From an uncultured archaeon (GTDB lineage Archaea > Thermoproteota > Bathyarchaeia > 40CM-2-53-6 > CALIRQ01), in contig CALIRQ010000009.1 in assembly GCA_938042195.1 (NCBI GenBank), positions 1,443 to 65,442 of the forward strand: DNA of 64,000 nucleotides, written 5' to 3'. Of this stretch, positions 3,275-43,640 are shown one piece after another (the first letter of the stretch is position 1; every line of letters begins with the position of its first letter). The position numbers were made by a program, and so were the translations under genes. The notes below the pieces were generated by a model that saw only the letters and a list, made by a program, of their open reading frames with translations, searched no databases and was not told where the DNA came from.

Positions 3275-4225
3275 TTGGAAGAAGAGGGAGATTCCGATAC
3301 CGTAATCGAGGTTGGACAAAGGGCCAAGGCCTGCCCGGAATGCGGCGGCGCCAATATAATAGTGGATTACGAATCCGCCGAGGTCGTGTGCAGAGATTGC
3401 GGCTTCGTAATGGATGAGAAGATAGCGGATACGAGGCCCGAATGGAGGGCCTTCGATGAGGAGCAAAGGGAGAAGAGGGCTCGGGTGGGCGCACCGATAA
3501 CCTATGCCCTCCACGACAAGGGCCTCTCCACGATGATAGATTGGCAGGACAATAAGGTCTTGGGGAAGAGGGATAACCCATCGAAGCAGATGGAGCTCTA
3601 CAAGTTGAGGAAATGGCAGAGGAGGATAAGGGTCTCCGATTCGATCGAGAGGAACTTGGCCGCGGCCCTCGCGGAGATGACCAAGATAGCTGAGGCGCTT
3701 AACCTACCGAAGAACATCGTGGAGACGTCCTCGATCCTTTATCGGAGGGCCATAAAGAAGAGGTTGATAAGGGGTAGATCCATACATACGATGAGCGCCG
3801 CGGCCATATACTTGAGCTGCAGGCAATGCGGGATCCCGAGGACGCTGGATGAAGTAGCGGCGGCATCCAACGTGAGCAAGAAGGAAATAGGGAGGTCCTA
3901 TCGCCTGATATTGAAGGAGATGAGCACCCCCGTTCCGCCCTCGATGGGCGGGAATTACGCGGCTAGGTTCTCGAACAAGCTGGCGATCTCCGGTATGGCC
4001 GAGGCGATAGCGATAAAGATACTCGAGGCGGCGAGGGCCATAAGGCTCACCGGCGGGAGGGGGCCGACCGGGATAGCGGCCGCGGCCACATATATAGCCA
4101 CAGTCCTGACTAACGAGAGGAGGACGCAAAGGGAGGTGGCCGAGGTAGCCAACGTAACCGAGGTAACGATAAGGAATAGATATAAGGAGTTGCTAGAGAG
4201 GATATACATAGAAGTATACGTGTGA
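3275..4225 (+). CDS. tfb: transcription initiation factor IIB (TFB)
   Basis: N-terminal zinc ribbon CPECGGANIIVDYESAEVVCRDCGFV followed by two cyclin-like repeats. TTG start 8 nt after the Gar1 stop, which is a conserved Gar1-TFB adjacency. Confidence 0.9.
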   Translation: MEEEGDSDTVIEVGQRAKACPECGGANIIVDYESAEVVCRDCGFVMDEKIADTRPEWRAFDEEQREKRARVGAPITYALHDKGLSTMIDWQDNKVLGKRDNPSKQMELYKLRKWQRRIRVSDSIERNLAAALAEMTKIAEALNLPKNIVETSSILYRRAIKKRLIRGRSIHTMSAAAIYLSCRQCGIPRTLDEVAAASNVSKKEIGRSYRLILKEMSTPVPPSMGGNYAARFSNKLAISGMAEAIAIKILEAARAIRLTGGRGPTGIAAAATYIATVLTNERRTQREVAEVANVTEVTIRNRYKELLERIYIEVYV

Positions 4226-5014: not shown

Positions 5015-5401
5015 GTGCTTCATTTGCCGGAGGACGAAGAACTGGAGCTCCTGAAGAGGAGGAAGCTCCAAGAGATCCAAAGAAGGCTCGCGATGGGGCA
5101 GGAGACCATCGAGGGGCCTAGGGGCGAGGACCGGGGGGCGGCGTTGAGGGGGGTCCTCGTCGGGAGGGCTTGGGAGGTGCTCGCGGCGGCTAGGAGGCAA
5201 TACCCGAGGGCTGCGGAGAGTGTGGAAGCAGCTTTGGCGAAGGCGATCTCCGAGGGGAAGATCAGGGGCCCAATAACGGGGGAGCAGCTCTTATGGCTGT
5301 TCAGATACTTGGGGCTGAATGTGAGGTTGGAGACGAGGATCAGGATCTACGAGCATGGGGAGCTCAAATCGATAGCGGAGAAGCTGAGGGAAGGGGATTA
5401 G
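5015..5401 (+). CDS. second PDCD5-like dsDNA-binding family protein (paralog)
   Basis: EDEELELLKRRKLQEIQRRL N-terminus, then AAESVEAALAKAISEGKIRGPITGEQLLWLF and a basic tail. Same architecture as 1662..1991. Confidence 0.55.
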   Translation: MLHLPEDEELELLKRRKLQEIQRRLAMGQETIEGPRGEDRGAALRGVLVGRAWEVLAAARRQYPRAAESVEAALAKAISEGKIRGPITGEQLLWLFRYLGLNVRLETRIRIYEHGELKSIAEKLREGD

Positions 5402-7268: not shown

Positions 7269-7547
7269 ATGAGGGAATATTTGGTCGAGGTAATCATACA
7301 GAACAAGGAGATGGCGAAGGATCCGGAGGGGGAAACGATAGAGAGGGACCTCATCCATAGGGGGGGATACGATTCCATAAGGGCCGTGAGATCGGGCAAA
7401 TACCTTCGAATGCTCGTCAAGGCGGATGGCCCCGAGAGGGCAAGGGAGATTGTGGTTAAGATGTGCAACGAATTGAGGTTGTTCAACCCGGTCGTTCATT
7501 CCTGCTCCGTGAAGGTCAGGGCGAGCGGGAGGAAGGGTGGGGATTGA
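7269..7547 (+). CDS. purS: phosphoribosylformylglycinamidine synthase subunit PurS
   Basis: About 90 aa PurS fold sequence MREYLVEVIIQNKEMAKDPEGETIERDL. GGAGG lies upstream of the ATG. Confidence 0.85.
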   Translation: MREYLVEVIIQNKEMAKDPEGETIERDLIHRGGYDSIRAVRSGKYLRMLVKADGPERAREIVVKMCNELRLFNPVVHSCSVKVRASGRKGGD

Positions 7548-8269
7548 GGATCGCGGTCCTCAACTTCCCGGGATCGAACTGCGAGCTGGACACCATCTAC
7601 GTCCTCCGCCGGCTCCTGAACTTGGATGCGGAGCTCGTATGGCATGAGGCCTTCGATCGATCCGGGTATGACGCCGCCATATTGCCGGGCGGCTTCTCAT
7701 ATGGGGATTACCTCAGGGCCGGGACGATAGCGGCCCATAGCCCGGCCATGAAACACGTGAGGGCCATGGCGGATGAGGGGAAGCCCGTGATAGGCATATG
7801 CAATGGGTTCCAGATGCTGACTGAGGCAGGTTTGCTCCCCGGGGCCCTCCTCAGGAACGAAGGGTTGAGCTTCGTCTGCCGATGGGTTTCGCTGAGGGTG
7901 GAATCCAATAGGAGCGCTTTGACTTGGCTATTGCCCAAGGGGGCGATCATCAGGTTGCCCATCGCCCACGCGGAGGGGCGATACGTTAACGAGAGGCGCG
8001 CGATCCGGGAGCTTTGGAGGAACGGGCAAGTGATCTTGACGTACGTTGACGAGCTGGGCAACCCGACCCCGGATGCCAATCCAAATGGCTCGATGGATAA
8101 CATAGCCGGGATATGCAATGAGCGGGGCAACGTCGTTGGGCTGATGCCACATCCGGAGAGGGGGGCCGAGGGGGTGTTGAGCCCCTTCGGCAGCGAGGAC
8201 GGCCTCATGCTGTTCGAATCGTTGCTCTATTTCATGAATGGGGGGGATCGGATCTGCGGGGCGGGCTGA
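7544..8269 (+). CDS. purQ: phosphoribosylformylglycinamidine synthase glutaminase subunit PurQ
   Basis: [27 protein letters not shown] and HPER motifs. TTG at 7544 overlaps the purS TGA (TTGA). The listed ATG at 7463 would give an atypical 27-aa N-terminal extension. Confidence 0.8.
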
Positions 8270-8286
8270 AGGCGAGGACATCCCTT

Positions 8287-10473
8287 TTGCCGGAGGAGTT
8301 GGATTACGTAATCGGCCAGCTGGGCAGGGAGCCGAACCGCATCGAGCTCGGCATGCTCGAGCTGATGTATTCGGAGCATTGTTCCTACAAGAGCAGCAGG
8401 CCGATCCTGAAGATCCTCCCGAGGGAGGGGCCGAGGGTCCTCGTCGGCCCGGGCTACGACGCCGGTATAGTGGATATAGGAAATGGCTACGTCGTCGCCT
8501 TCAAGATCGAGAGCCACAACCACCCTTCCGCCATAGACCCGTACAACGGCGCCGCCACCGGTATCGGTGGGATCGTTCGCGATATCCTATGCACCAACTG
8601 CAGGCCCGTCGCCCTCTTGGACTCCCTGAGGTTTGGCCCGCCGAGGAAGGGCAGGACCAAATGGTTGTTGAAGTACGTCGTGAAGGGCATATCGGATTAT
8701 GGCAATAGGATCGGCGTCCCCACGGTCGCTGGAGAGGTCGAGTTCGATGAGAGCTTCGAGACCAACTGCTTGGTCAACGTGGCATGCGTCGGCATAGGGA
8801 GGAGGGACTCGATAGTGCTCGCGAAGATGGAGAGCCCCGGGGATTACATAGTATTGATGGGCAGCTCCACTGGGAGGGACGGCATACATGGCGTCACCTT
8901 CGCATCAAAGACCATAACCGCTGAATCGGAGGAGGAGAGGCCCTCCGTCCAGATCGGGGACCCCTTCATGAAGAAGATGATAATCGAGGCCACCTTGGAG
9001 GCGGTCGCGACGGGCTTCGTGGCGGGCTTGAAGGACCTCGGGGGCGCGGGGTTGACGTGCGCGCTGTCCGAGATGTCCTTCAAGGGCGGCACGGGCGTAG
9101 AGGTGGAACTGGAGAGAGTGCACTTGCGGGAGGAGGACATGACGCCCTATGAGATAATGCTATCAGAATCCCAGGAGAGGATGCTTTTCGTCGTAAAGCC
9201 CGAGGGCCTTGAAAGGGTCCTCGGGGTATTCAGGAAATGGGGCCTGCCCCATTCGGTGATCGGGAGGGTCACGGATACCGGGGAGATCTTGGTTAAGTAT
9301 AGGGGCGAAGTGGTCGCTAGGCTGCCCTCCAAGCTATTGGCGGAGGCTCCGGTCCTGCACAGGAGGGCCAAGAGGCCGAGGGATCTCGCCAAGGCGCTCA
9401 AGGTCCCGAAGCCCAGGGAGCCCAAGGACCTCGGGAGGGCATTGGTAAGGTTGCTCTCCTCCCCGAACATAGCGAGCAAGGAGCCCATCTATTCCCAATA
9501 CGACTATGAGGTCGGCATCAGGACGATCGTGAAGCCGGGCGATGGGGACGCGGCGGTCCTGAGGCTGCTCGAGGAGCCGAGGGCGATAGCCGTGAAGGCC
9601 GATTGCAATAGCCGGCATTGCCGCCTCGATCCATTCAACGGCCACGCCGGAGCCGTCGCGGAATCTGCTAGGAACGTCGTGGCGGTCGGCGCCGAGCCGA
9701 TCGCGGCCGTCGATTGTTGCAACTTCGGGAACCCGGAGAGGCCCGAGGTCTTTTGGCAATTCTCGGAGGGGATCAGGGGCCTCTCCTACATGCTCGAGGG
9801 CCTCGGGATCCCATGCGTTGGCGGCAATGTGAGCTTCTACAACGAGGACGAGAGGACCGGTAGGGCGGTGAACCCCACGACCGTCGTAGTGACTTTAGGC
9901 CTCGTTGAGGAACTGGATTGGGTGACGACTATGGCCTTCAAGGAGCACGGCGATGAGATATTCGCCGTCGGGAGGACCTACGCGGAGATGGGGGGATCCG
10001 AGTATTATCATTGGATCCACGGCATTAGCGGCGGCAGGCCCCCGCGCGCATCGCCGGGGAGGGAGAGGTCATCCATGGCGATCGTCAAGGAGGCGATCAG
10101 GAGGGGCTTGATCGACGCGGCCCACGATTGCTCCAAGGGCGGAATCGCGGTGGCTTTGGCCATAATGGCCATAAAGGGGGGATTGGGGATCGATGTGGAT
10201 TTGGGGCGCATACCCCGCTCGGGGGTGGGGCGATTGGACGAGCTATTGTTCTCCGAATCCTACGCGAGGTTCGTCATCTCCGCCCGGCCCGGCTCCGCGC
10301 GCGAGCTCAGGGCCATAGCCGAGAGGCATGGGGGCGCGATCTCGAGGCTGGGGAGGGTGGTCGATTCCTCCGAGCTCTTCATGAGATACGGCGGGAGGGC
10401 GATCCGATGCGGGCTTGGGGAATTGAGGGAGGCGTGGAATGGATCCATGAGGAGGTACTTGGGGGAGCTTTGA
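8287..10473 (+). CDS. purL: phosphoribosylformylglycinamidine synthase II PurL
   Basis: 728 aa. SEHCSYKSS near the N-terminus; duplicated AIR-synthase-like domains. Confidence 0.9.
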   Translation: MPEELDYVIGQLGREPNRIELGMLELMYSEHCSYKSSRPILKILPREGPRVLVGPGYDAGIVDIGNGYVVAFKIESHNHPSAIDPYNGAATGIGGIVRDILCTNCRPVALLDSLRFGPPRKGRTKWLLKYVVKGISDYGNRIGVPTVAGEVEFDESFETNCLVNVACVGIGRRDSIVLAKMESPGDYIVLMGSSTGRDGIHGVTFASKTITAESEEERPSVQIGDPFMKKMIIEATLEAVATGFVAGLKDLGGAGLTCALSEMSFKGGTGVEVELERVHLREEDMTPYEIMLSESQERMLFVVKPEGLERVLGVFRKWGLPHSVIGRVTDTGEILVKYRGEVVARLPSKLLAEAPVLHRRAKRPRDLAKALKVPKPREPKDLGRALVRLLSSPNIASKEPIYSQYDYEVGIRTIVKPGDGDAAVLRLLEEPRAIAVKADCNSRHCRLDPFNGHAGAVAESARNVVAVGAEPIAAVDCCNFGNPERPEVFWQFSEGIRGLSYMLEGLGIPCVGGNVSFYNEDERTGRAVNPTTVVVTLGLVEELDWVTTMAFKEHGDEIFAVGRTYAEMGGSEYYHWIHGISGGRPPRASPGRERSSMAIVKEAIRRGLIDAAHDCSKGGIAVALAIMAIKGGLGIDVDLGRIPRSGVGRLDELLFSESYARFVISARPGSARELRAIAERHGGAISRLGRVVDSSELFMRYGGRAIRCGLGELREAWNGSMRRYLGEL

Positions 10474-11915
10474 GGCCGGGGAAGCGCGAGGCCTGCGGCG
10501 TGATGGGCATCTCCTTGGAGCGCGGGAACATATCCCCGCTCATATATTACGGCCTGATGGCCCTGCAGCATAGGGGCCAGGAATCCTGTGGGATCTCCGT
10601 ATACGATGGAAGGGCGCTCAGGACCGTGCGTAGATATGGGCTCGTGGGCGAGGAACTCCAGCGCGTGGCGAGGGCTTTAGGGGGGAGGGTGGGCATAGGC
10701 CACGTGAGATACTCCACCCTTGGGGGGCCCTCATTGATCAACGCGCAGCCCGTCCCCATAAGGATGGGCGGGGAGACGTTCTCGATAGCCCATAACGGCA
10801 CCATAGTCAATTATGAGCAACTGAGGGACTACCTCGCGGGAAAGGGCATCGGGCTGAGGACCAAATCGGACTCGGAGGCGATCTTGAGGATCTTCCTCGA
10901 CTCCTACAGGAGGGGCTGCGATGTATTCGGGAGCTTGGAATCCTGCTCCGAGAGGATCGAGGGCGGCTATTCCATGGTTATGGCGAACTCCAAAGGGGAG
11001 CTGATAGCGGCCAGGGATCCGCTCGGCCTCAGGCCGCTTTGCATGGGAAATTCGGGGAACTCGATCGCCATAGCATCGGAGAGCGTCGCCCTCGATATAA
11101 ACTCCCTAACCCTAATCGGAGACGTCGAGCCGGGGACAGCCGTCTTCGTTGGGGGGAACGATGTGGAGGTCGAGAGGTTCGCCAGCTGCCCGCGGAGGGC
11201 CTATTGCATGTTCGAATACGTATACTTCAGCAGGCCGGACTCGATCTTGGAGGGGAGGAGCGTATACGACGTGAGGTTGCGCCTCGGGAGGAACTTGGCG
11301 GATACGATCGATGGCGATATCGACAGCATAGTCCCGGTCCCCGATACGTCGAGGACGGCGGCCGAGGGATTGTCCAGGATGACGGGGATCCCGGTCGCGG
11401 AGGGCCTGATAAAGAACAGGTACGTCCACAGGACGTTCATAATGCCGACCCAAGAAGCGAGGGAGGGCGCCGTAAGGATGAAGCTGAACCCGCTCAAATC
11501 CGTAATAAAGGGGAAAAGGATAGTCTTGGTCGATGATAGCATAGTGAGGGGCACCACTTTGAAGAACATAGTGGCCATGCTTAAATCCTCGGGGGCGAAG
11601 GAGGTCCACGTGAGGATCACCTGCCCTCCGATAATATCCCCGTGCTTCTACGGGATAGACATATCGAGCCGCTCCGAGCTCATAGCCGCCAATAACTCCG
11701 TTGAAGCGATCGAGAGGATCCTCGGCGCCGATAGCTTGGTATATCAAAGCTTGGAGGGTCTGATAGACGCGATAGGGCTGCCGAGGGGGGACCTCTGCAA
11801 CGCCTGCTTGACGGGCGAGTACCCGACCCCGATGGCCCAGGAGAGGGCCGAGGAGGACGCCCGGAGGCCCCCGAGTCAGATCCCGAGTGGGATGGAGGGC
11901 ATATGGCGGGCATAA
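10470..11915 (+). CDS. purF: amidophosphoribosyltransferase PurF (with short propeptide)
   Basis: CGVMGIS...YYGLMALQHRGQESCGISVYDG Ntn-glutaminase N-terminus, PRTase motif VLVDDSIVRGTT and C-terminal Cys cluster. TTG at 10470 overlaps the purL stop (TTGA) and gives a 7-aa propeptide before Cys1. The listed upstream part of the ORF (from 10128) overlaps purL. Confidence 0.8.
   Translation: MRPGKREACGVMGISLERGNISPLIYYGLMALQHRGQESCGISVYDGRALRTVRRYGLVGEELQRVARALGGRVGIGHVRYSTLGGPSLINAQPVPIRMGGETFSIAHNGTIVNYEQLRDYLAGKGIGLRTKSDSEAILRIFLDSYRRGCDVFGSLESCSERIEGGYSMVMANSKGELIAARDPLGLRPLCMGNSGNSIAIASESVALDINSLTLIGDVEPGTAVFVGGNDVEVERFASCPRRAYCMFEYVYFSRPDSILEGRSVYDVRLRLGRNLADTIDGDIDSIVPVPDTSRTAAEGLSRMTGIPVAEGLIKNRYVHRTFIMPTQEAREGAVRMKLNPLKSVIKGKRIVLVDDSIVRGTTLKNIVAMLKSSGAKEVHVRITCPPIISPCFYGIDISSRSELIAANNSVEAIERILGADSLVYQSLEGLIDAIGLPRGDLCNACLTGEYPTPMAQERAEEDARRPPSQIPSGMEGIWRA
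10540..10609 (+). repeat. 70-nt segment identical to 11958..12027 (copy A, inside purF)
   Basis: Direct comparison: tcatatattacggcctgatggccctgcagcataggggccaggaatcctgtgggatctccgtatacgatgg is identical in both paralogs, while flanking sequence diverges. Confidence 0.85.
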
Positions 11916-13246
11916 TAGGGCTATACGGCTACGATCCCGTTTGGAAGATGGCCAGGTTCATATATTACGGCCTGATGGCCCTGCAGCATAGGGGCCAGGA
12001 ATCCTGTGGGATCTCCGTATACGATGGGGAGCGCATCCTTTGCGATGGCCGCGCCGGCATGGTCGATCAGGCCTTCGGGGAGGCGGAGCTCGAGGCTTTG
12101 AGGGGATGGATCGGGATTGGCCAAGTAGACCCCGAGCCGCCGAAGGGGCGCATCGTCTCCAAGCCCTTCTTCGCCAAATGCCCGATTGGGGTGTCGCTGG
12201 TTTGCGATGGCTCGGCGGCCGGCGCGGTCGAGGCTGCGAGGGAGCGCGGCTTTGCGGCCGAGGATCCGCAGGGCGCCTTGGCGGCCCTCCTCTCCAAGGA
12301 GCTGGCCGATGGGGACCCCTTCGGCGCCGTTGAGAGGATCACGGGGAGGCTTGGGGGCGCTTGCAATTTCATAGCCCTCACCGAGCGCGGGGAGATGATC
12401 GCCTATAGGGGCGAGCTTGGCATAAAGCCCATGGTCGTTGGGAACTTCGGGTTCGATTACGGGGCCATCGCGTCGGAGAGCTGCGCCTTGGACGTCATCG
12501 GCGCGGAACTGAAGGCCGACCTATCGCCCGGGGAGGTGTATCTCTTCACGCCCTGGAGCATAGAGAGGAGGAGGATCGGGGAGGCGGATCCGAAATATTG
12601 CGCCTTCGAATACGTATACTTGGCTAGGCCCGATTCCATAATAAACGGGAAGAGCGTTTATGAGGTGAGGAGGAGGATCGGGGAGAGGTTGGCCTTGGAG
12701 AGCGACGTTAGGGATGCGGACTCCGTCTTGGCGGTGCCCGAAACGGCCATCCCATTCGCCTTATCCTTCGCGAACTTTACTAAGAAGCCGATCGAGATGG
12801 GGTTCGTCCAAACCGGAAGGAGGGTCCGGAGCGCGATAAGGCCGACCCAGTTTGAAAGGCTTGTGGGCGTACAGCTGAAATTGAACCCAATAAGGGCCGC
12901 AATGGCCGGGAGGAGGGTCATCCTGGTGGACGATAGCGTCGTTAGGGGCACGACGACCAAGAACACGGTGAAGATAATGAGGAACAGGATGGGGGCCAAG
13001 GAGGTCCATGTGAGGATAGGCAGCCCCAGGATAATCTCCCAATGCCCCTTCGGGATGGAGGTGCCAGATAAGGACGAGCTCATAGCGGCTCATCTCAACG
13101 AGGAGGAGGTGGGCAAGGTAGTCGAGGCGGATACGTTCCATTGGCTCAGCTTGGAGGGCCTGGTGGAGGCCATAGGGCTGCCGAGGGAGAGCCTCTGCCT
13201 CGGTTGCTTCACTGGGGAATATCCGGGGCGTGGTGATCGAAATTGA
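11903..13246 (+). CDS. PurF-like amidophosphoribosyltransferase paralog lacking the N-terminal Cys nucleophile
   Basis: Begins MAGIIGLYG (Ala where Cys1 is expected). Retains YYGLMALQHRGQESCGISVYDG, VILVDDSVVRGTT and the C-terminal CxxC region. 447 aa. Confidence 0.8.
   Translation: MAGIIGLYGYDPVWKMARFIYYGLMALQHRGQESCGISVYDGERILCDGRAGMVDQAFGEAELEALRGWIGIGQVDPEPPKGRIVSKPFFAKCPIGVSLVCDGSAAGAVEAARERGFAAEDPQGALAALLSKELADGDPFGAVERITGRLGGACNFIALTERGEMIAYRGELGIKPMVVGNFGFDYGAIASESCALDVIGAELKADLSPGEVYLFTPWSIERRRIGEADPKYCAFEYVYLARPDSIINGKSVYEVRRRIGERLALESDVRDADSVLAVPETAIPFALSFANFTKKPIEMGFVQTGRRVRSAIRPTQFERLVGVQLKLNPIRAAMAGRRVILVDDSVVRGTTTKNTVKIMRNRMGAKEVHVRIGSPRIISQCPFGMEVPDKDELIAAHLNEEEVGKVVEADTFHWLSLEGLVEAIGLPRESLCLGCFTGEYPGRGDRN
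11958..12027 (+). repeat. 70-nt segment identical to 10540..10609 (copy B, inside purF paralog)
   Basis: See copy A. Confidence 0.85.
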
Positions 13247-14724
13247 AGGTGCTTCTGGTCGGGGAGGGGGCTAGAGAGCACGCGATAGCCAGCGCCATAT
13301 GCAGGAGCCCACAAGGCCCCAGGCTCTACGCGGCGATGAGATCGATGAACCCCGGGATCCGAGAGCTTTGCCTCAGAAGCGGCGGGGATGTGGCCCTAGG
13401 GGATTCGATGGACCCCGAGTTCATCTCCAAGGCGGCCGATAGGTTCTCGGTCGATTTCGTCTTCATTGGCCCGGAGGAGCCCCTTTTCAGAGGGGCCGCC
13501 AACGCGGTCGAGGATATGGGCATACCGTGCATAGGGGCGAGGCGCGAGGCCGCGGAGATAGAGATGTCCAAGGCTTTCATGAGGAGGCTGATGTGGAGGC
13601 ATAAAATACCAGGGAGGCTCAGGTTCCAAGCCTTCAGGAGCATCGAGGATGCGATCGCCTACATAGAGGAATACGCAGAAAGCGTGGCGATAAAGCCAGC
13701 TAGGCAGGCCGGTGGGAAGGGCGTCAAGGTGATAGCGGATTTCCAAGCCTATCTCAGCAAGGAGAAGGGCCATGTGAAGGCGGAGCACGCAAAGGCCATA
13801 GAGGCGAAGTATATGAAGGGGTATGCCGATATAGAGGATAGGATATTGATCGAGGAACGGGTCGAGGGCCCGGAGTACACAATACAGATGTTCACGGATG
13901 GCGATTCGGTCGCCCCGTTCCCATTGGTCCAGGACAATAAGAACGCCTACGATATGGATATAGGACCAGAAACGGGTGGGATGGGCTCGATCTCCGGGAA
14001 TGGGATGCTCCTCCCCTTCATAACGCGGGAGGAGTACGATGCCTCGGTCGATATCGTGAGGAGATGCGTGAAGGCCATCGAATCCGAGCTCGGCGTGAAA
14101 TACAAGGGGGTCATATCGGGGCAGATGATGCTCACCCCGATATGGGGGCCGACGATAATAGAGTTCTACAGCCGATTCGGGGATCCTGAAGGCGTCAACG
14201 TCCTTCCGCTTTTAAGGACCGATATGGTGGAGATAATGGAGGCGATCGCCTCGGCCAAGTTGCATAAGGTGAAGATGGAGTTCGAGGAGGCGGCGACGGT
14301 CGTCAAATGCTTCGCGCCCAAGGGATATCCGGAGCGCAGGGACCTAGCGGCCGGGCATCCAGTTCGGATAGATGCGGAGGCCATAAGGGCCATGGGATGC
14401 GAGGTCTTCTATGGCTCGGTGGATCTGGCGCAAGATGGGGGGCTGATCACCGGCGGATCCCGGATCTGCGAGATATTCGCGAAGGGCGAGGAAATCCCGG
14501 AGATAAGCGATAGGATAGAGCGCTGCTCGCCCCTCATATATTGCTTGGATGGTTGGGGGGTATTCCACAGGAGCGATATAGGATCGGCGGCGCTCCTTAG
14601 TAGGAGGATCGAGCAATCGAACTTGATAAGGGACGTATACAAGTATAGGATGGGGAAGGGACTGATCGGGATGGATATCGATTGGATCCCCGGGAAGGGG
14701 AAGATAGTCCATTCGGTGTGGTGA
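13243..14724 (+). CDS. purD: phosphoribosylamine--glycine ligase PurD
   Basis: MKVLLVGEGAREHAIA N-terminus and ATP-grasp core; 493 aa with C-terminal extension. Confidence 0.85.
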   Translation: MKVLLVGEGAREHAIASAICRSPQGPRLYAAMRSMNPGIRELCLRSGGDVALGDSMDPEFISKAADRFSVDFVFIGPEEPLFRGAANAVEDMGIPCIGARREAAEIEMSKAFMRRLMWRHKIPGRLRFQAFRSIEDAIAYIEEYAESVAIKPARQAGGKGVKVIADFQAYLSKEKGHVKAEHAKAIEAKYMKGYADIEDRILIEERVEGPEYTIQMFTDGDSVAPFPLVQDNKNAYDMDIGPETGGMGSISGNGMLLPFITREEYDASVDIVRRCVKAIESELGVKYKGVISGQMMLTPIWGPTIIEFYSRFGDPEGVNVLPLLRTDMVEIMEAIASAKLHKVKMEFEEAATVVKCFAPKGYPERRDLAAGHPVRIDAEAIRAMGCEVFYGSVDLAQDGGLITGGSRICEIFAKGEEIPEISDRIERCSPLIYCLDGWGVFHRSDIGSAALLSRRIEQSNLIRDVYKYRMGKGLIGMDIDWIPGKGKIVHSVW

Positions 14725-14730
14725 TTCGCA

Positions 14731-16134
14731 ATGGCCTTGTTAATGCCCTTCAGGGATTCCCTCGGGACGCCGCTCTACGAGGGCTCCACTAAGGTCCTGC
14801 TCTTAGGGGCAGGGGAATTGGGGAAGGAGATAGCCATCGAGGCCCAAAGGCTGGGCGTTGAAACGGTCACTGTGGATAGATACGATAACCCGCCAGCCGC
14901 CCAAGTAGCCCATAGGCATTATACGATCGATATGAGGGACGGGGCGGCCCTGAAGGCCGTGGTCCGTAGGGAGCGGCCGGATGCCATAATCCCGGAGGTG
15001 GAGGCCATAAACACCGATGCCCTCCTAGAGCTCGAGGAGGAGGGGTTCTTCGTCGTTCCGAGGGCAAGGGCCACGAAGATAACCATGGATAGGATCGCGC
15101 TGAGGAGGCTGGCGGCCGAAGAGGCTGGCGTTCCAACGACGCCTTATAAATTCGCGAGCGATCCGGAGGAGCTGGAGGCGGCTTGCGAGGAGATAGGCTT
15201 CCCCTGCATAGTCAAGGCTAGAATGAGCTCCGGCGGGCTGGGCTCGAGCGTAGTCTTCCGCAGGGATCAGGTCCGGGATGCTTATGAAACGGCCAGGAGG
15301 AAGGCCAGGGGTTATGGGGGCGAGGTCATAGTGGAGGGCCTCTGCCGATTCGATTTCGAGATAACCGAGCTGGCCCTAGCCCATTACGATCCGAACGGCG
15401 AGGTTGGGATATCTTTCCCGAAGCCTGTTGGGCACCTGAGGTCGGGCAGCCATTACCACGTCAGCTGGCAGCCGTTCGTTTTGATCGATGAGGAAACTGG
15501 CGCGAGCAAGTCCCCGCTCCAAGCCTTCGGGGGCCAGCTCCATATGTCCGAGGACGTCACCACTCGCGACCTCCTTTGGAGATCGGAACACGATGGCGAG
15601 GTGCTCTCGGCCGAGACCGCGAGGGAGGTCGAGGAGCAATGCTACGAGATAGCTGGAAAGGTTGTGAGGAAGCTGATAGGGGAGGGAGGCGCGATTGAGG
15701 GCCTTGGGATATTCGGCTGCGAGCTCTTCGTCAAGGTCGATGAAGGGGGCAAGCCAAAGGTATACTTCAACGAGATATCGCCCAGGCCGCACGATACCGG
15801 GATGGTGACCATAGCGACCCAGGACCTCTCAGAGGCAGCGCTCCACGTAAGGGCCGTTCTGGGCCTTCCGATAGCTGGGATCAAGGTCCTAACGCCCGGT
15901 GCGGCGCACGTCATCCTATCCAGCGAGGATTCTAAATGGGCCCCCGGCTATGGGCGCTTGAGCAGGGCGCTTGGGATCCCGGGCGTCAGGGTCCTGCTCT
16001 TCGGGAAGCCATCCACTTATAAGGAAAGAAGGCTAGGCTTGGCGTTGGCGATATCCGACGATATACTCGACGCTAGGAGGAAGGCCATGGAGGCGGCCCA
16101 TTTGATAGAAGGGGGCATAAGATATGGCCGATGA
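14731..16134 (+). CDS. purT: formate-dependent phosphoribosylglycinamide formyltransferase PurT
   Basis: [24 protein letters not shown]...[23 protein letters not shown]...IIPEVEAI...[15 protein letters not shown] matches PurT rather than PurK. Confidence 0.75.
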
Positions 16135-20435: not shown

Positions 20436-20624
20436 CATGCGTTTGAGGCGCTGGATATTGCTCCTGTTTTTCATCTTAATAATCGCAAATTACGCCATCC
20501 CATATTTGGCCCTATCATCCGCGAGGGGGCTCTCGGGGGCCTTCATGTTCTGGATATTAATATCCCTCATCGCAATAGCCTTGGTTATGGCGGCCTCATG
20601 GGGATGGAGGGAGTGAGCCCATGA
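20436..20624 (+). CDS. candidate 62-aa two-TM membrane protein, putative small partner of the SSS transporter
   Basis: Hand translation MRLRRWILLLFFILIIANYAIPYLALSSARGLSGAFMFWILISLIAIAFGYGGLMGMEGVSP. Its stop overlaps the transporter ATG (ATGA at 20621-20624). Not in the ORF track. Confidence 0.4.
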   Translation, partial: HAFEALDIAPVFHLNNRKLRHPIFGPIIREGALGGLHVLDINIPHRNSLGYGGLMGMEGVSP

Positions 20625-22105
20625 TAAGATCGGCCCATATGTACTTCGGCGTTGCCCTCTTCTTCGCGATCATGCTCGCGATTGCCCATTACGGGAGGAG
20701 GAGGACCGGGGCGGGCGTCGAGGAATATTACCTGGCCGGGAGGAGGATGGGGGGATTGGTGGCAGCGCTGACGTACAGCGCCACCACCTATAGCGCATTC
20801 ATGATGGTCGGGCTCGTGGGCTACGCTTGGGCTGGGGGCGTCGGGGCGATGGGCTTCGAATTGACCTATCTCATCGGGACGGGCCTATTGCTCCTGATAT
20901 TCGCCCCCAGGATGCTGCTCGCCGGGAGGATCTGGGGCCTCGTGAGCCCATCCGAGCTCCTCGCCAAGAGATATGGCAGCCCGGCGGTCGGGGCCCTCGC
21001 CTCCCTAATATGCCTCCTCTTCCTGGTGCCATATACCTCGGTCCAAGCCCAAGGCTCCGCATACCTCCTCACCACGCTCACGGGCGGGGAGATATCCTAC
21101 GAGGCCGGGTTGGCGTTCATGATAGCCATCATTGCGGCTTTGGCTTGGTGGGGCGGGATGAGGGGCGTCGCTTGGTCCGATGCCATACAAGCGCTAGTAA
21201 TGATTATTACGGCTACGGCGTTGCTCGCCCTAATGATCCAATCGATATTCGGCGGGCTTGGCGCATTCGTTTCAAGGATCGAGGCGGAGGCCCCGGAGTT
21301 GCTAAGCGTACCAGGACCAAACGCCTTCTTCAACTTCCCCAGGTTCCTGGGCCTCACGATCCCGTGGTTCTTCTTCGCGATTACGAACCCCCAAGTTTCG
21401 CAAAGGCTCCTCGCGCCAAGGTCCATGGCCTCCCTCAAATGGATGCTTAGGGGGTTCTTGATCTTCGGGCTCCTTTACACGGTGATATGCACCCTGTTTG
21501 GGCTATCCTCTCGATTGATATACCCATCCCTCCCATCGCCCGACTTGGCGATGCCGAAGCTCCTTTCGGAGAAGGTGCCCCCGCCCATCTCCATAGTGAC
21601 GTTGATGGGGATACTCTCGGCCGCGGTGACCACAGCAGATTCCATCCTTCTCTCCTTGGGCTCGATGGTTGGGAGGGATATATATAGGGCCATCAGGCCC
21701 GGGGCCTCGGACGTGGAGGAGTTGAGGGTCGGTAAGGCTGTTATAATCCTCATGGCCCTGGCCTTGCTCGCTTTCTCCTGGAGCCCCAGGGGCCTTATAG
21801 TGGAATTGTCGGTCCTCTCCTCGGCCGGCCTATTGGCGCTCGTGCCGCCATTCGTTGGGGCCTTCTTTTGGCGAAGGGGGACCGCGCTCGGCGCCATCCT
21901 CAGCATGGCGGCCGGCGCGTTGGCAGCGGGGTCCCTCCACTTCTCTAGGGCCTACCCGCTGGGGCAGTGGCCTGGGGTCTGGGCCCTCCCGGTGTCCACA
22001 ATGGCCTTCCTAATCGCGAGCGCGTTGAGCAAGCAGCCGGGGGGCGTTGATGAGTTCTTCAGGGCCTTGGATGGGGCTTTGGCGAAGAAGAACGTGGCCA
22101 TCTAG
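20621..22105 (+). CDS. sodium:solute symporter (SSS) family transporter
   Basis: 494 aa and about 13 TM helices. N-terminal YYLAGRRMGG...YSATTYSAFMMVGLVGYAWAGG is SSS-like. Confidence 0.85.
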   Translation: MIRSAHMYFGVALFFAIMLAIAHYGRRRTGAGVEEYYLAGRRMGGLVAALTYSATTYSAFMMVGLVGYAWAGGVGAMGFELTYLIGTGLLLLIFAPRMLLAGRIWGLVSPSELLAKRYGSPAVGALASLICLLFLVPYTSVQAQGSAYLLTTLTGGEISYEAGLAFMIAIIAALAWWGGMRGVAWSDAIQALVMIITATALLALMIQSIFGGLGAFVSRIEAEAPELLSVPGPNAFFNFPRFLGLTIPWFFFAITNPQVSQRLLAPRSMASLKWMLRGFLIFGLLYTVICTLFGLSSRLIYPSLPSPDLAMPKLLSEKVPPPISIVTLMGILSAAVTTADSILLSLGSMVGRDIYRAIRPGASDVEELRVGKAVIILMALALLAFSWSPRGLIVELSVLSSAGLLALVPPFVGAFFWRRGTALGAILSMAAGALAAGSLHFSRAYPLGQWPGVWALPVSTMAFLIASALSKQPGGVDEFFRALDGALAKKNVAI

Positions 22106-41855: not shown

Positions 41856-43640
41856 TTGCCAAGGATAGCGATTCTCGATAGGGAAAGGTGCAAGCCAGAG
41901 GACTGTGGACGCGAATGCATGCGCTTCTGCCCCGAGGTAAGGGGGGGCATCGAGGCCGTCAAGTTCCCTGAGGGTAAGGGATCCCAACCGCTCATAGCGG
42001 AGGCCCTCTGCTCGGGATGCGGGATATGCGTAAAGAAATGCCCGTTCAAGGCCATTTCGATAATCAACCTCCCCGAGAGGCTTGAGGGGGAATGCGTCCA
42101 TAGGTACGGCCCGAACTCATTCGAGCTCCTCCGCCTCCCAGAGCCGGGCGAGGGCGCCATCACGGGATTGATAGGCAGGAACGGGATGGGGAAGAGCACA
42201 GCTCTCAGGATTCTCTCGGGGGAGCTGAAGCCCAACCTTGGGGATTATGAATCCCCCCCAGATTGGGATCGAATAATCAAGAGGTTTAGGGGATCCGTCC
42301 TTCAGGAATACTTCAGGAAATTGAGCGGCGGGGAGTTGAAGGTCATCAGGAAGCCGCAATATGTCGACGGAATAAGGTCCGTTGTGAGGGGTCGCGTCCG
42401 AGAAGTGCTCGAGGGGCTTGATGAAGCGAACAGGTTATCGCGCATCAAGGATGAGTTCCACTTGGGGCCGATATATGAAAGGGAGGTCAAGGATCTAAGC
42501 GGGGGCGAGCTCCAAAGGCTTGCGATAGCGGCGGCTTTGCTCAGGGAGGCGGATGTATATATATTCGATGAGCCCTCGAGTCACCTCGATGTTTATCAAA
42601 GGCTTGAGGTCGCAAAGGGGATCAGGAGGTTGGCGGACGAAGGAAGGACCGTGTTTCTCGCCGAGCACGACCTCGCGATGCTGGATTACCTCTCCGACCA
42701 AGTTTGCATACTCTACGGCGAGCCGGGCGCCTACGGTATAGTATCGCATCCGAAGGGCGTCAGAAATGGCATCAATATTTACTTGGATGGTTACATGCCC
42801 GACGAGAACATGCGCTTCAGGGATGAGCCAATAAAGTTCAGCCCGAAGCCCCCCAGGAGGGCCGAGGATTTAGGCATACCATACCTTCGATGGCCAAGGC
42901 TTGTGAAGGATTACGGCCAATTCCGCCTCGAGGTCAGTCCCGGGCGCATATTCCAAGGGGAGGTGCTTGGGCTGATGGGCCCGAACGGTATAGGGAAGAC
43001 CACCTTCATAGAGCTATTGGCGGGCCTCGAGCGGGCCGATGTCGGCGGAGCCCCTTTGGAGGGATATGAGCTCAGCCTGAAGCCGCAATATATCTCTGGG
43101 CTCTACAGGGGGGTCGTGGGGGAACTCATTAAGGAAGCTTTGGGCGCGGATCCCCTTGAGCTCCCGGAGGCGGTGGAGCTGGTGAAGTCATTGGGCTTGG
43201 ATGGGCTTATGGAGAGGAGGGCTGAGAACCTGAGCGGGGGGGAGCTCCAAAGGCTTGCGATAGCGATTTGCTTGCTCAAGGATGCGCAGATCTACCTCTT
43301 GGATGAGCCGTGCGCCTACTTGGATATTGAGGAAAGGTTCTCCGTAGCGAAGGTCATAAAGAGGAGGGTTATGGAGGCGAGGGCTTTCGGGTTCGTTGTG
43401 GAGCACGACATAATCCTCCAAGACCTCTTGGCGGATCGGCTCATGGTATTCCTAGGGAGGCCCGGGGAGGAGGGCTTTGCCGGAGAGCCCCAAGCGCTCA
43501 AGGATGGTATGAACTCCTTCCTGAAGGATCTGGGCGTGACCTTTCGCAGGGATGCGGATACGGGGAGGCCCAGGGTTAATAAACCCGGCAGCAGGCTCGA
43601 TAGGATCCAGAAGGGATCGGGAGAATACTACTACGCTTGA
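41856..43640 (+). CDS. abce1: ribosome recycling ATPase ABCE1 (RNase L inhibitor homolog)
   Basis: N-terminal FeS domain RIAILDRERCKPEDCGRECMRFCP...CSGCGICVKKCP plus two ABC cassettes (GRNGMGKST / GPNGIGKTT, LSGGELQRLAIA x2). TTG start. Confidence 0.9.
   Translation: MPRIAILDRERCKPEDCGRECMRFCPEVRGGIEAVKFPEGKGSQPLIAEALCSGCGICVKKCPFKAISIINLPERLEGECVHRYGPNSFELLRLPEPGEGAITGLIGRNGMGKSTALRILSGELKPNLGDYESPPDWDRIIKRFRGSVLQEYFRKLSGGELKVIRKPQYVDGIRSVVRGRVREVLEGLDEANRLSRIKDEFHLGPIYEREVKDLSGGELQRLAIAAALLREADVYIFDEPSSHLDVYQRLEVAKGIRRLADEGRTVFLAEHDLAMLDYLSDQVCILYGEPGAYGIVSHPKGVRNGINIYLDGYMPDENMRFRDEPIKFSPKPPRRAEDLGIPYLRWPRLVKDYGQFRLEVSPGRIFQGEVLGLMGPNGIGKTTFIELLAGLERADVGGAPLEGYELSLKPQYISGLYRGVVGELIKEALGADPLELPEAVELVKSLGLDGLMERRAENLSGGELQRLAIAICLLKDAQIYLLDEPCAYLDIEERFSVAKVIKRRVMEARAFGFVVEHDIILQDLLADRLMVFLGRPGEEGFAGEPQALKDGMNSFLKDLGVTFRRDADTGRPRVNKPGSRLDRIQKGSGEYYYA

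Follow-up and report, generated by a model that had tools for sequence, protein, structure and literature searches.

The window analysed here, a 64 kb stretch (64,000 nt) of contig CALIRQ010000009.1 from an uncultured archaeon of the Bathyarchaeia, carries two tandem paralogs within a purine operon, purF and purF′, that share a tract identical at 70 of 70 nucleotides (Table 1). The initial annotation had reported a perfect 70-nt identity between paralogs that are otherwise divergent, and both statements held: the match is exact and maximal, the flanking base on each side being different, and the two proteins are 40% identical, with 51% identity in the codon-aligned DNA outside the tract. The two copies lie 1418 nt apart; no other exact direct repeat in the whole window exceeds 24 nt, and no inverted 20-mers were found.

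In both genes the tract encodes (L/F)IYYGLMALQHRGQESCGISVYDG. It runs from position 2 of a Leu/Phe codon upstream to position 3 of a Gly codon downstream, and divergence of the proteins begins at these ends (P-L/I versus R-F upstream, R/S-A-L versus E-R-I downstream). Copy 1 corresponds to residues ∼16–38 of mature PurF (LIYYGLMALQHRGQESCGISVYDG; numbering by alignment to Bacillus subtilis PurF, 1AO0) and takes in Arg26 and Gly27 of the N-terminal nucleophile (Ntn) glutaminase site, in the H-R-G-Q loop, which agrees with the earlier description of the tract as a conserved glutaminase segment. Copy 2 covers PurF′ residues 19–41 together with two bases of the Phe18 codon; in the AlphaFold model of PurF′ (helix 16–27, strand 34–40), it takes in the latter half of helix alpha1 and, after it, the RGQ loop and a beta strand.

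The two genes are distinct in kind. The purF product passes the TIGR01134 cut-off of 350 bits and matches 1AO0 (E=6.7e-112) from Cys1 onward, with Cys1, HRGQ, GHVRYST, AHNG, and DDSIVRGTT all present; the gene starts at TTG 10470 or GTG 10434, overlaps the purL stop, and encodes a short propeptide ahead of the nucleophile Cys (10494–10496). The purF′ product fails the same cut-off. Its N terminus, MAGIIG, has Ala in place of Cys1 in the 1AO0 alignment, and its glutaminase motifs are degenerate (GHVRYAT to GQVDPEP, AHNGN to VCDGS), but it keeps the phosphoribosyltransferase motif DDSVVRGTT and four iron-sulfur cysteines. The AlphaFold model (mean predicted confidence, pLDDT, 87) superposes on PurF structures with template modeling (TM) scores of 0.86–0.89. 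By its fold, its lack of an N-terminal Cys, its position beside purF, and its placement in a separate clade, the second gene is the PurF′ of Brown et al. 2011 (PMC3261824), who, in the passages concerned with the pair, describe a Crenarchaeota PurF with an N-terminal Cys beside a Cys-less PurF′ in a purine cluster. The putative function proposed in those passages for PurF′ is that of an ammonia-dependent phosphoribosyl pyrophosphate (PRPP) aminotransferase, acting in phosphoribosylamine (PRA) synthesis.

Table 1. Features of the purF/purF′ locus, in window coordinates (ORF, open reading frame; L001-L008, loci of sister lineages introduced in the text)
Feature	Position	Strand	Basis
Identity tract, copy 1	10540-10609	+	within purF; exact 70-nt match to 11958-12027
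Identity tract, copy 2	11958-12027	+	within purF′; exact 70-nt match to 10540-10609
purF, canonical glutamine PRPP amidotransferase	10470-11915	+	TIGR01134 466.6 bits; 1AO0 match; ORF list
purF′, cysteine-less paralog	11903-13246	+	TIGR01134 298 bits; 1AO0 alignment; predicted fold; Brown et al. 2011
purF stop/purF′ start overlap, 13 nt	11903-11915	+	ORF coordinates; recurs in L001-L008
Purine operon around the pair	7463-16134	+	ORF list; gene order and Pfam annotation in orthologous L001-L007
purQ	7463-8269	+	ORF list
purL	8287-10473	+	ORF list
purD	13243-14724	+	ORF list
purT	14731-16134	+	ORF list

The identity of the tract exceeds what chance arrangement of the aligned codons produces. When codon columns were permuted 5000 times in a GENECONV-type test, no identical run was longer than 34 nt, against the 70 nt observed, and the outcome was the same for three sister lineages (L001, L008, and L090). 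At residues identical in the two proteins, the same codon is used in 21 of 21 cases within the tract and in 86 of 151 (57%) outside it; at the outside rate, 21 shared codons would have a probability of ∼0.57^21, or about 7e-6. This comparison of synonymous divergence inside and outside the tract, proposed as a check in the initial annotation, came out in favor of its reading.

Purifying selection on the protein, combined with codon bias, might produce nucleotide identity over a conserved motif without any exchange of DNA. The tract does span the most conserved PurF/PurF′ motif, in which Q28, R30, G31, Q32, and E33 are invariant throughout the PurF′ alignment, and the genome has strong codon preferences (GC content at third codon positions (GC3) ∼0.79). 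However, the shared-codon counts just given differ sharply between tract and remainder, and other conserved motifs (FEYVY, GAKEVHVRI, and DDSxVRGTT) show synonymous differences between the window paralogs; no further island was found in FEYVY, GAKEVHVRI, or SLEGL..AIGLPR of the window pair. Relatives that serve as controls (L091/L092, L093, and L021) carry the residues YYGLMALQHRGQE or ALQHRGQE in both paralogs, yet their nucleotide identity there is merely 62–65%, their longest identical nucleotide runs over the motif are 8–14, and only 5–10 of 13–14 codons are identical. In addition, as described below, lineages differ at synonymous sites of the tract about as often as in the background, but always in both copies. 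We therefore regard protein constraint as a practically negligible explanation.

The carrying evidence comes from a comparison of four lineages: the window; seven NCBI metagenome-assembled genome (MAG) assemblies from different samples, which are 0–4 sites apart across both genes (L001–L007); a MEGAHIT contig (k141) from the European Nucleotide Archive (ENA) (L008); and a contig from the Joint Genome Institute (JGI) (L090). In the contig search a single PurF′ query found no relative, and an alignment query gave 13 archaeal loci amid generic PurF patterns. Tracts occur at the same codons in all of the sister lineages, with lengths of 70 nt (L001–L007), 60 nt (L008), and 63 nt (L090), and each lineage has its own spelling. 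Both window paralogs read TAT TAC ... CTG ... CAG GAA TCC TGT ... GAT, both L001 paralogs read TAC TAT ... CTC ... CAA GAA TCC TGC ... GAC, and both L090 paralogs carry GCG CTT CAG CAC ... GAG TCC TGC. The lineage tracts differ at 5–7 sites, common to both paralogs of a genome and almost all synonymous, the nonsynonymous exceptions being Val to Ile/Thr in L008 and Asp to Glu and Ile to Ala in L090.

Inside the tract, then, sequences group by genome, and outside it they group by paralog. Over 72 nt, the paralogs within a genome have 2–5 differences, whereas the same gene in different genomes of the four lineages has 7–11; outside the tract, p-distances are 0.50–0.54 between paralogs and 0.12–0.19 between orthologs. 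Sites that group sequences by genome number 5–7 in the 70-nt tract versus 5–15 in the remaining ∼1240 nt, and sites that group them by paralog number 0 inside and 295–425 outside. Synonymous codon differences between orthologs (16–35% inside the tract, 25–39% outside) are close to the background; thus what persists is the match between the two copies, not any particular nucleotide sequence. Because the lineage-specific changes are present in both paralogs, conversion must have occurred after the lineages split, and recurrently. The initial annotation had proposed a recent intergenic conversion, of which the conversion stands, given the grouping by genome, and the single recent event does not.

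If the common ancestor had undergone one old conversion and the tract had since evolved unusually slowly, an island with nearly the same boundaries would be expected in all four lineages. However, the orthologous tracts differ at 7–11 of 72 nt, similar to the synonymous divergence of their flanks, and without later conversion each pair of lineages would need 5–7 parallel identical substitutions. We consider such a history highly improbable.

The same comparison bears on the assembly. The window comes from an assembly of an uncultured organism, and its exact PurF′ protein has no other record, so that a chimeric or collapsed contig could be suspected of having put the same 70 nt into both genes. 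Against this, the tract is found at the same codons with lineage-specific sequence in 7 NCBI MAGs, 1 ENA contig, and 1 JGI contig, and both reading frames are intact; moreover, ordinary reads, and the k=141 of the L008 assembly, exceed 70 nt. The chance of an artefact is, in our judgment, minimal. Assembly error, which the initial annotation had named as the finding that would undo its proposal, is thus contradicted by at least ten independent assemblies that share the architecture while the tract sequence varies by lineage, and for the same reason of length the hazard that it saw for assembly and read mapping is weak.

A second island was found in Methanomethylicia. In L012, L094/L095, L096, and L097, purF and purF′ match exactly over 30–36 nt on ALQHRGQES(A/T)GI, the QHRGQE motif, in paralogs that are 52–54% different beyond the island. 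The spelling again varies between genomes and is common to both copies (AGG GGG CAG GAG TCC in L094 versus AGA GGA CAG GAA TCT in L096), an Ala/Thr replacement is common to both copies in L097 and L012, and there are 0–2 differences between paralogs within a genome and 4–7 between genomes. The Methanomethylicia island is independent of that in Bathyarchaeia. No island was detected in nine other sampled clades, in which the longest runs are 6–17 nt; three further loci, in which the motif could not be placed in purF, were left unscored. The motif is therefore a recurrent site of conversion, not a universal one. As a separate observation, purF and purF′ of L101/L102 (the P0059 lineage) both have ATSNGE just past QHRGQE, with low nucleotide identity (48/72), which may be a decayed trace of an old conversion.

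The boundaries kept in three lineages and the presence of an island on the same motif in a second clade would also suit a requirement for identity at the nucleic-acid level, for instance a structured RNA, a site where a protein binds, or one targeted by a small or antisense RNA, with conversion only the means of meeting it. However, the folding energy of the tract is ordinary (z = −0.35 and −0.47 on the two strands), the copies with their flanks fold unlike each other (z = −2.1 and 0.0), and the tract sequence is free to vary between lineages. There was no Rfam match at E≤1 in 10000–13500; no promoter-like site was found, and terminator-like sites are at chance level only. A trans-acting antisense partner was rejected as well: the sole 14-nt complement in the window, at 21686–21699 (AGGGCCATCAGGCC), lies inside a 494-aa ORF (20621–22105) and was judged a chance match. 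We hold a nucleic-acid function to be very unlikely.

Taken together, the comparative data fit no reading of these sequences except gene conversion between the two tandem genes, and the tract is very probably a self-maintaining island of concerted evolution, kept by recurrent short-patch conversion between purF and purF′. Non-reciprocal homologous recombination would repeatedly overwrite one copy of the tract with the other. The island would have nucleated on the longest amino acid run that both proteins must keep, (Y)YGLMALQHRGQE. The motif is the longest common run in L093 (13 residues) and L091 (10 residues), both without an island, and in L021, which has no island either, its 8 residues make it the second longest, one below the longest. 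This makes it the likeliest place for nucleotide similarity high enough to seed a heteroduplex. Identical DNA would then suffice for strand invasion and heteroduplex formation, and new mutations would be erased or copied to the partner; spread past the ends would be halted by the abrupt loss of homology and probably also by selection against overwriting flanks whose functions have diverged.

Set against outgroups, the tract combines residues of both kinds, QES and ISV resembling purF and CGI and YDG resembling purF′, and this mosaic suggests that conversion probably went both ways. Experiments in Sulfolobus acidocaldarius (PMC3367456), an archaeon of the TACK group (Thaumarchaeota, Aigarchaeota, Crenarchaeota, and Korarchaeota), have shown short-patch, un-coordinated conversion of mismatches over short intervals. 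GC-biased conversion was rejected, as the GC3 of the tract (0.68) is not above the 0.79 of the genes. A function for a chimera of the PurF N terminus and PurF′ was also rejected; PurF′ is without the other glutaminase residues, and restoration of Cys1 would be insufficient. Recombination deletions that yield such a chimera may be deleterious by-products.

Several points weigh against recurrent conversion. The machinery would be RadA-type recombination or template switching during replication, and conversion itself is deduced from assembled sequences. An island occurs in just 2 of the ∼13 sampled clades with the tandem pair, so that the motif alone is insufficient, and lineage-specific recombination properties or chance nucleation have to be invoked. 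The identical 5′ boundary in three lineages could also point to selection for identity instead of passive tolerance. Such selection might act if a PurF/PurF′ hetero-oligomer needs the same helix alpha1, RGQ loop, and strand beta2 in both subunits; the tract would then be a symmetric contact or a shared allosteric element, and conversion would be the route by which the subunits co-evolve. If true, this would explain both the recurrence of an island on the same motif in two distant archaeal classes and the stable boundaries. We consider it unlikely, and recurrent short-patch conversion remains the reading that we prefer.

The pair in which the island sits is old. Tandem purF/purF′ was found in Bathyarchaeia, Nezhaarchaeales, Hecatellales, Methanomethylicia, Nitrososphaeria, and the Asgard archaeon Jordarchaeum, and PurF′ orthologs are 47–64% identical to the window PurF′, compared with 40% for its own PurF; its nearest relatives are proteins of Bathyarchaeia MAGs, at 91% and 87% identity. 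The overlap between purF and purF′ suggests translational coupling. A survey of PurF′ N termini (the window gene, proteins P0006, P0015, P0017, P0025, and P0032, and locus L009) showed a family spread widely among archaea, in which Cys1 is usually missing and the N termini read MAGI, MGGV, MSGL, or MPGI. Some members, including the Jordarchaeum copy, have an ERCGV-type N terminus with Cys, yet no RYST motif; the nucleophile therefore seems to have been lost more than once, or its loss reversed.

Three observations concern the sequence of purF′ and of the neighboring purL. Within purF′, 12565–12583 and 12667–12685 form a 19-nt exact direct repeat (GAGGAGGAGGATCGGGGAG) that encodes RRRIGE twice; it is probably due to chance, given AGG-rich codons and, in its second copy, a Met to Arg change that is specific to the window and not shared with the sister lineages. 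In the P0003 lineage (L091 and L092, positions 1–1056), the purL upstream of purF contains an intein (Pfam matches Intein_splicing and LAGLIDADG), which is absent from the window purL. In L006 (427–2571), the gene call gives two purL ORFs, of 461 and 250 aa, in place of a single 735-aa one; the split could come from an assembly error or reflect a frameshift or a stop codon.

Two other short matches are candidates for conversion. In L001, purF and purF′ match exactly over 23 nt (3855–3877 and 5246–5268) at SLEGLIEAIGLPR, where the L001 purF, unlike that of the window, L008, or L090, has the purF′-like codons GGC, GAG, and GCC (Asp to Glu); the match may mark a second micro-conversion. Elsewhere in the window, 42507–42530 and 43242–43265 match exactly over 24 nt (33 nt with one mismatch) inside ORF 41856–43640, an ABCE1/RLI-like gene, and join its two ATP-binding cassette (ABC) signature regions (LSGGELQRLAIA). 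Intragenic micro-conversion between the two nucleotide-binding domains could have produced this match.

The purF/purF′ island is a new example of a known process, distinguished by its short tract, its stable boundaries, and the involvement of one motif in two archaeal classes. It offers a clean natural example of a concerted-evolution tract as short as 30–70 nt that persists in paralogs otherwise saturated with differences, of a kind that whole-gene phylogenetic screens for concerted evolution would overlook. It also provides indirect evidence for short-patch homologous recombination in uncultured Bathyarchaeia and Methanomethylicia. The mosaic suggests that a bona fide enzyme can take over residues (PurF Cys31, YDG) from a pseudo-enzyme paralog, a possibility that bears on inferring PurF/PurF′ function or phylogeny from the tract segment, and the island draws attention to the widespread archaeal pair.

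A literature search returned no report of conversion between purF and purF′. Among known systems, conversion between tufA and tufB in enterobacteria, reportedly described by Abdulkarim and Hughes in 1996, is said to be a recombination-dependent homogenization of duplicated essential genes, and conversion between the alpha and beta chaperonin subunits of Crenarchaeota, also of the TACK group, is said to have been described by Archibald and Roger in 2002 as concentrated in conserved segments. Both sets of paralogs are far more alike overall than PurF and PurF′ with their 40% amino acid identity.

The gene pair of Brown et al. 2011 (PMC3261824) is the same as that described here; the PurF/PurF′ passages of that paper mention no nucleotide identity or conversion, and the pair they describe comes from Crenarchaeota, whereas the Bathyarchaeia and Methanomethylicia lineages appear to have been unsampled at that time. 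Wang and Chen 2018 (PMC6053082) list 26 prokaryotic genes with long-lasting concerted evolution, most of them acting within the same complex or pathway, and in that set, as in the tract, a gene is more like its paralog in the same genome than its ortholog in another. Their screen used whole-gene trees, which would miss an island of 70 nt, and purF has 0 occurrences in the main text.

Conversion between RF1 and RF2 in bacteria, in domain 3 (Ishikawa et al. 2015, PMC4530459), resembles the present case in that anciently diverged, distinct paralogs are affected in a region of common function, in two independent clades and in both directions. It differs in that the genes are not tandem, the region is nearly a whole domain, and the conversions are single historical events found by phylogeny, whereas the purF/purF′ tract is currently identical. 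In methanogens, mtrA-1 and mtrA-2 (Wang et al. 2015, PMC4632066) likewise stand in tandem within a single archaeal operon; long-lasting recurrent conversion homogenizes these paralogs only in the part they have in common, and does so in two separate lineages. They belong to another family, and their homogenized part is a whole domain, whereas the purF/purF′ island occupies 30–70 nt (10–23 codons) in genes that are ∼50% different.

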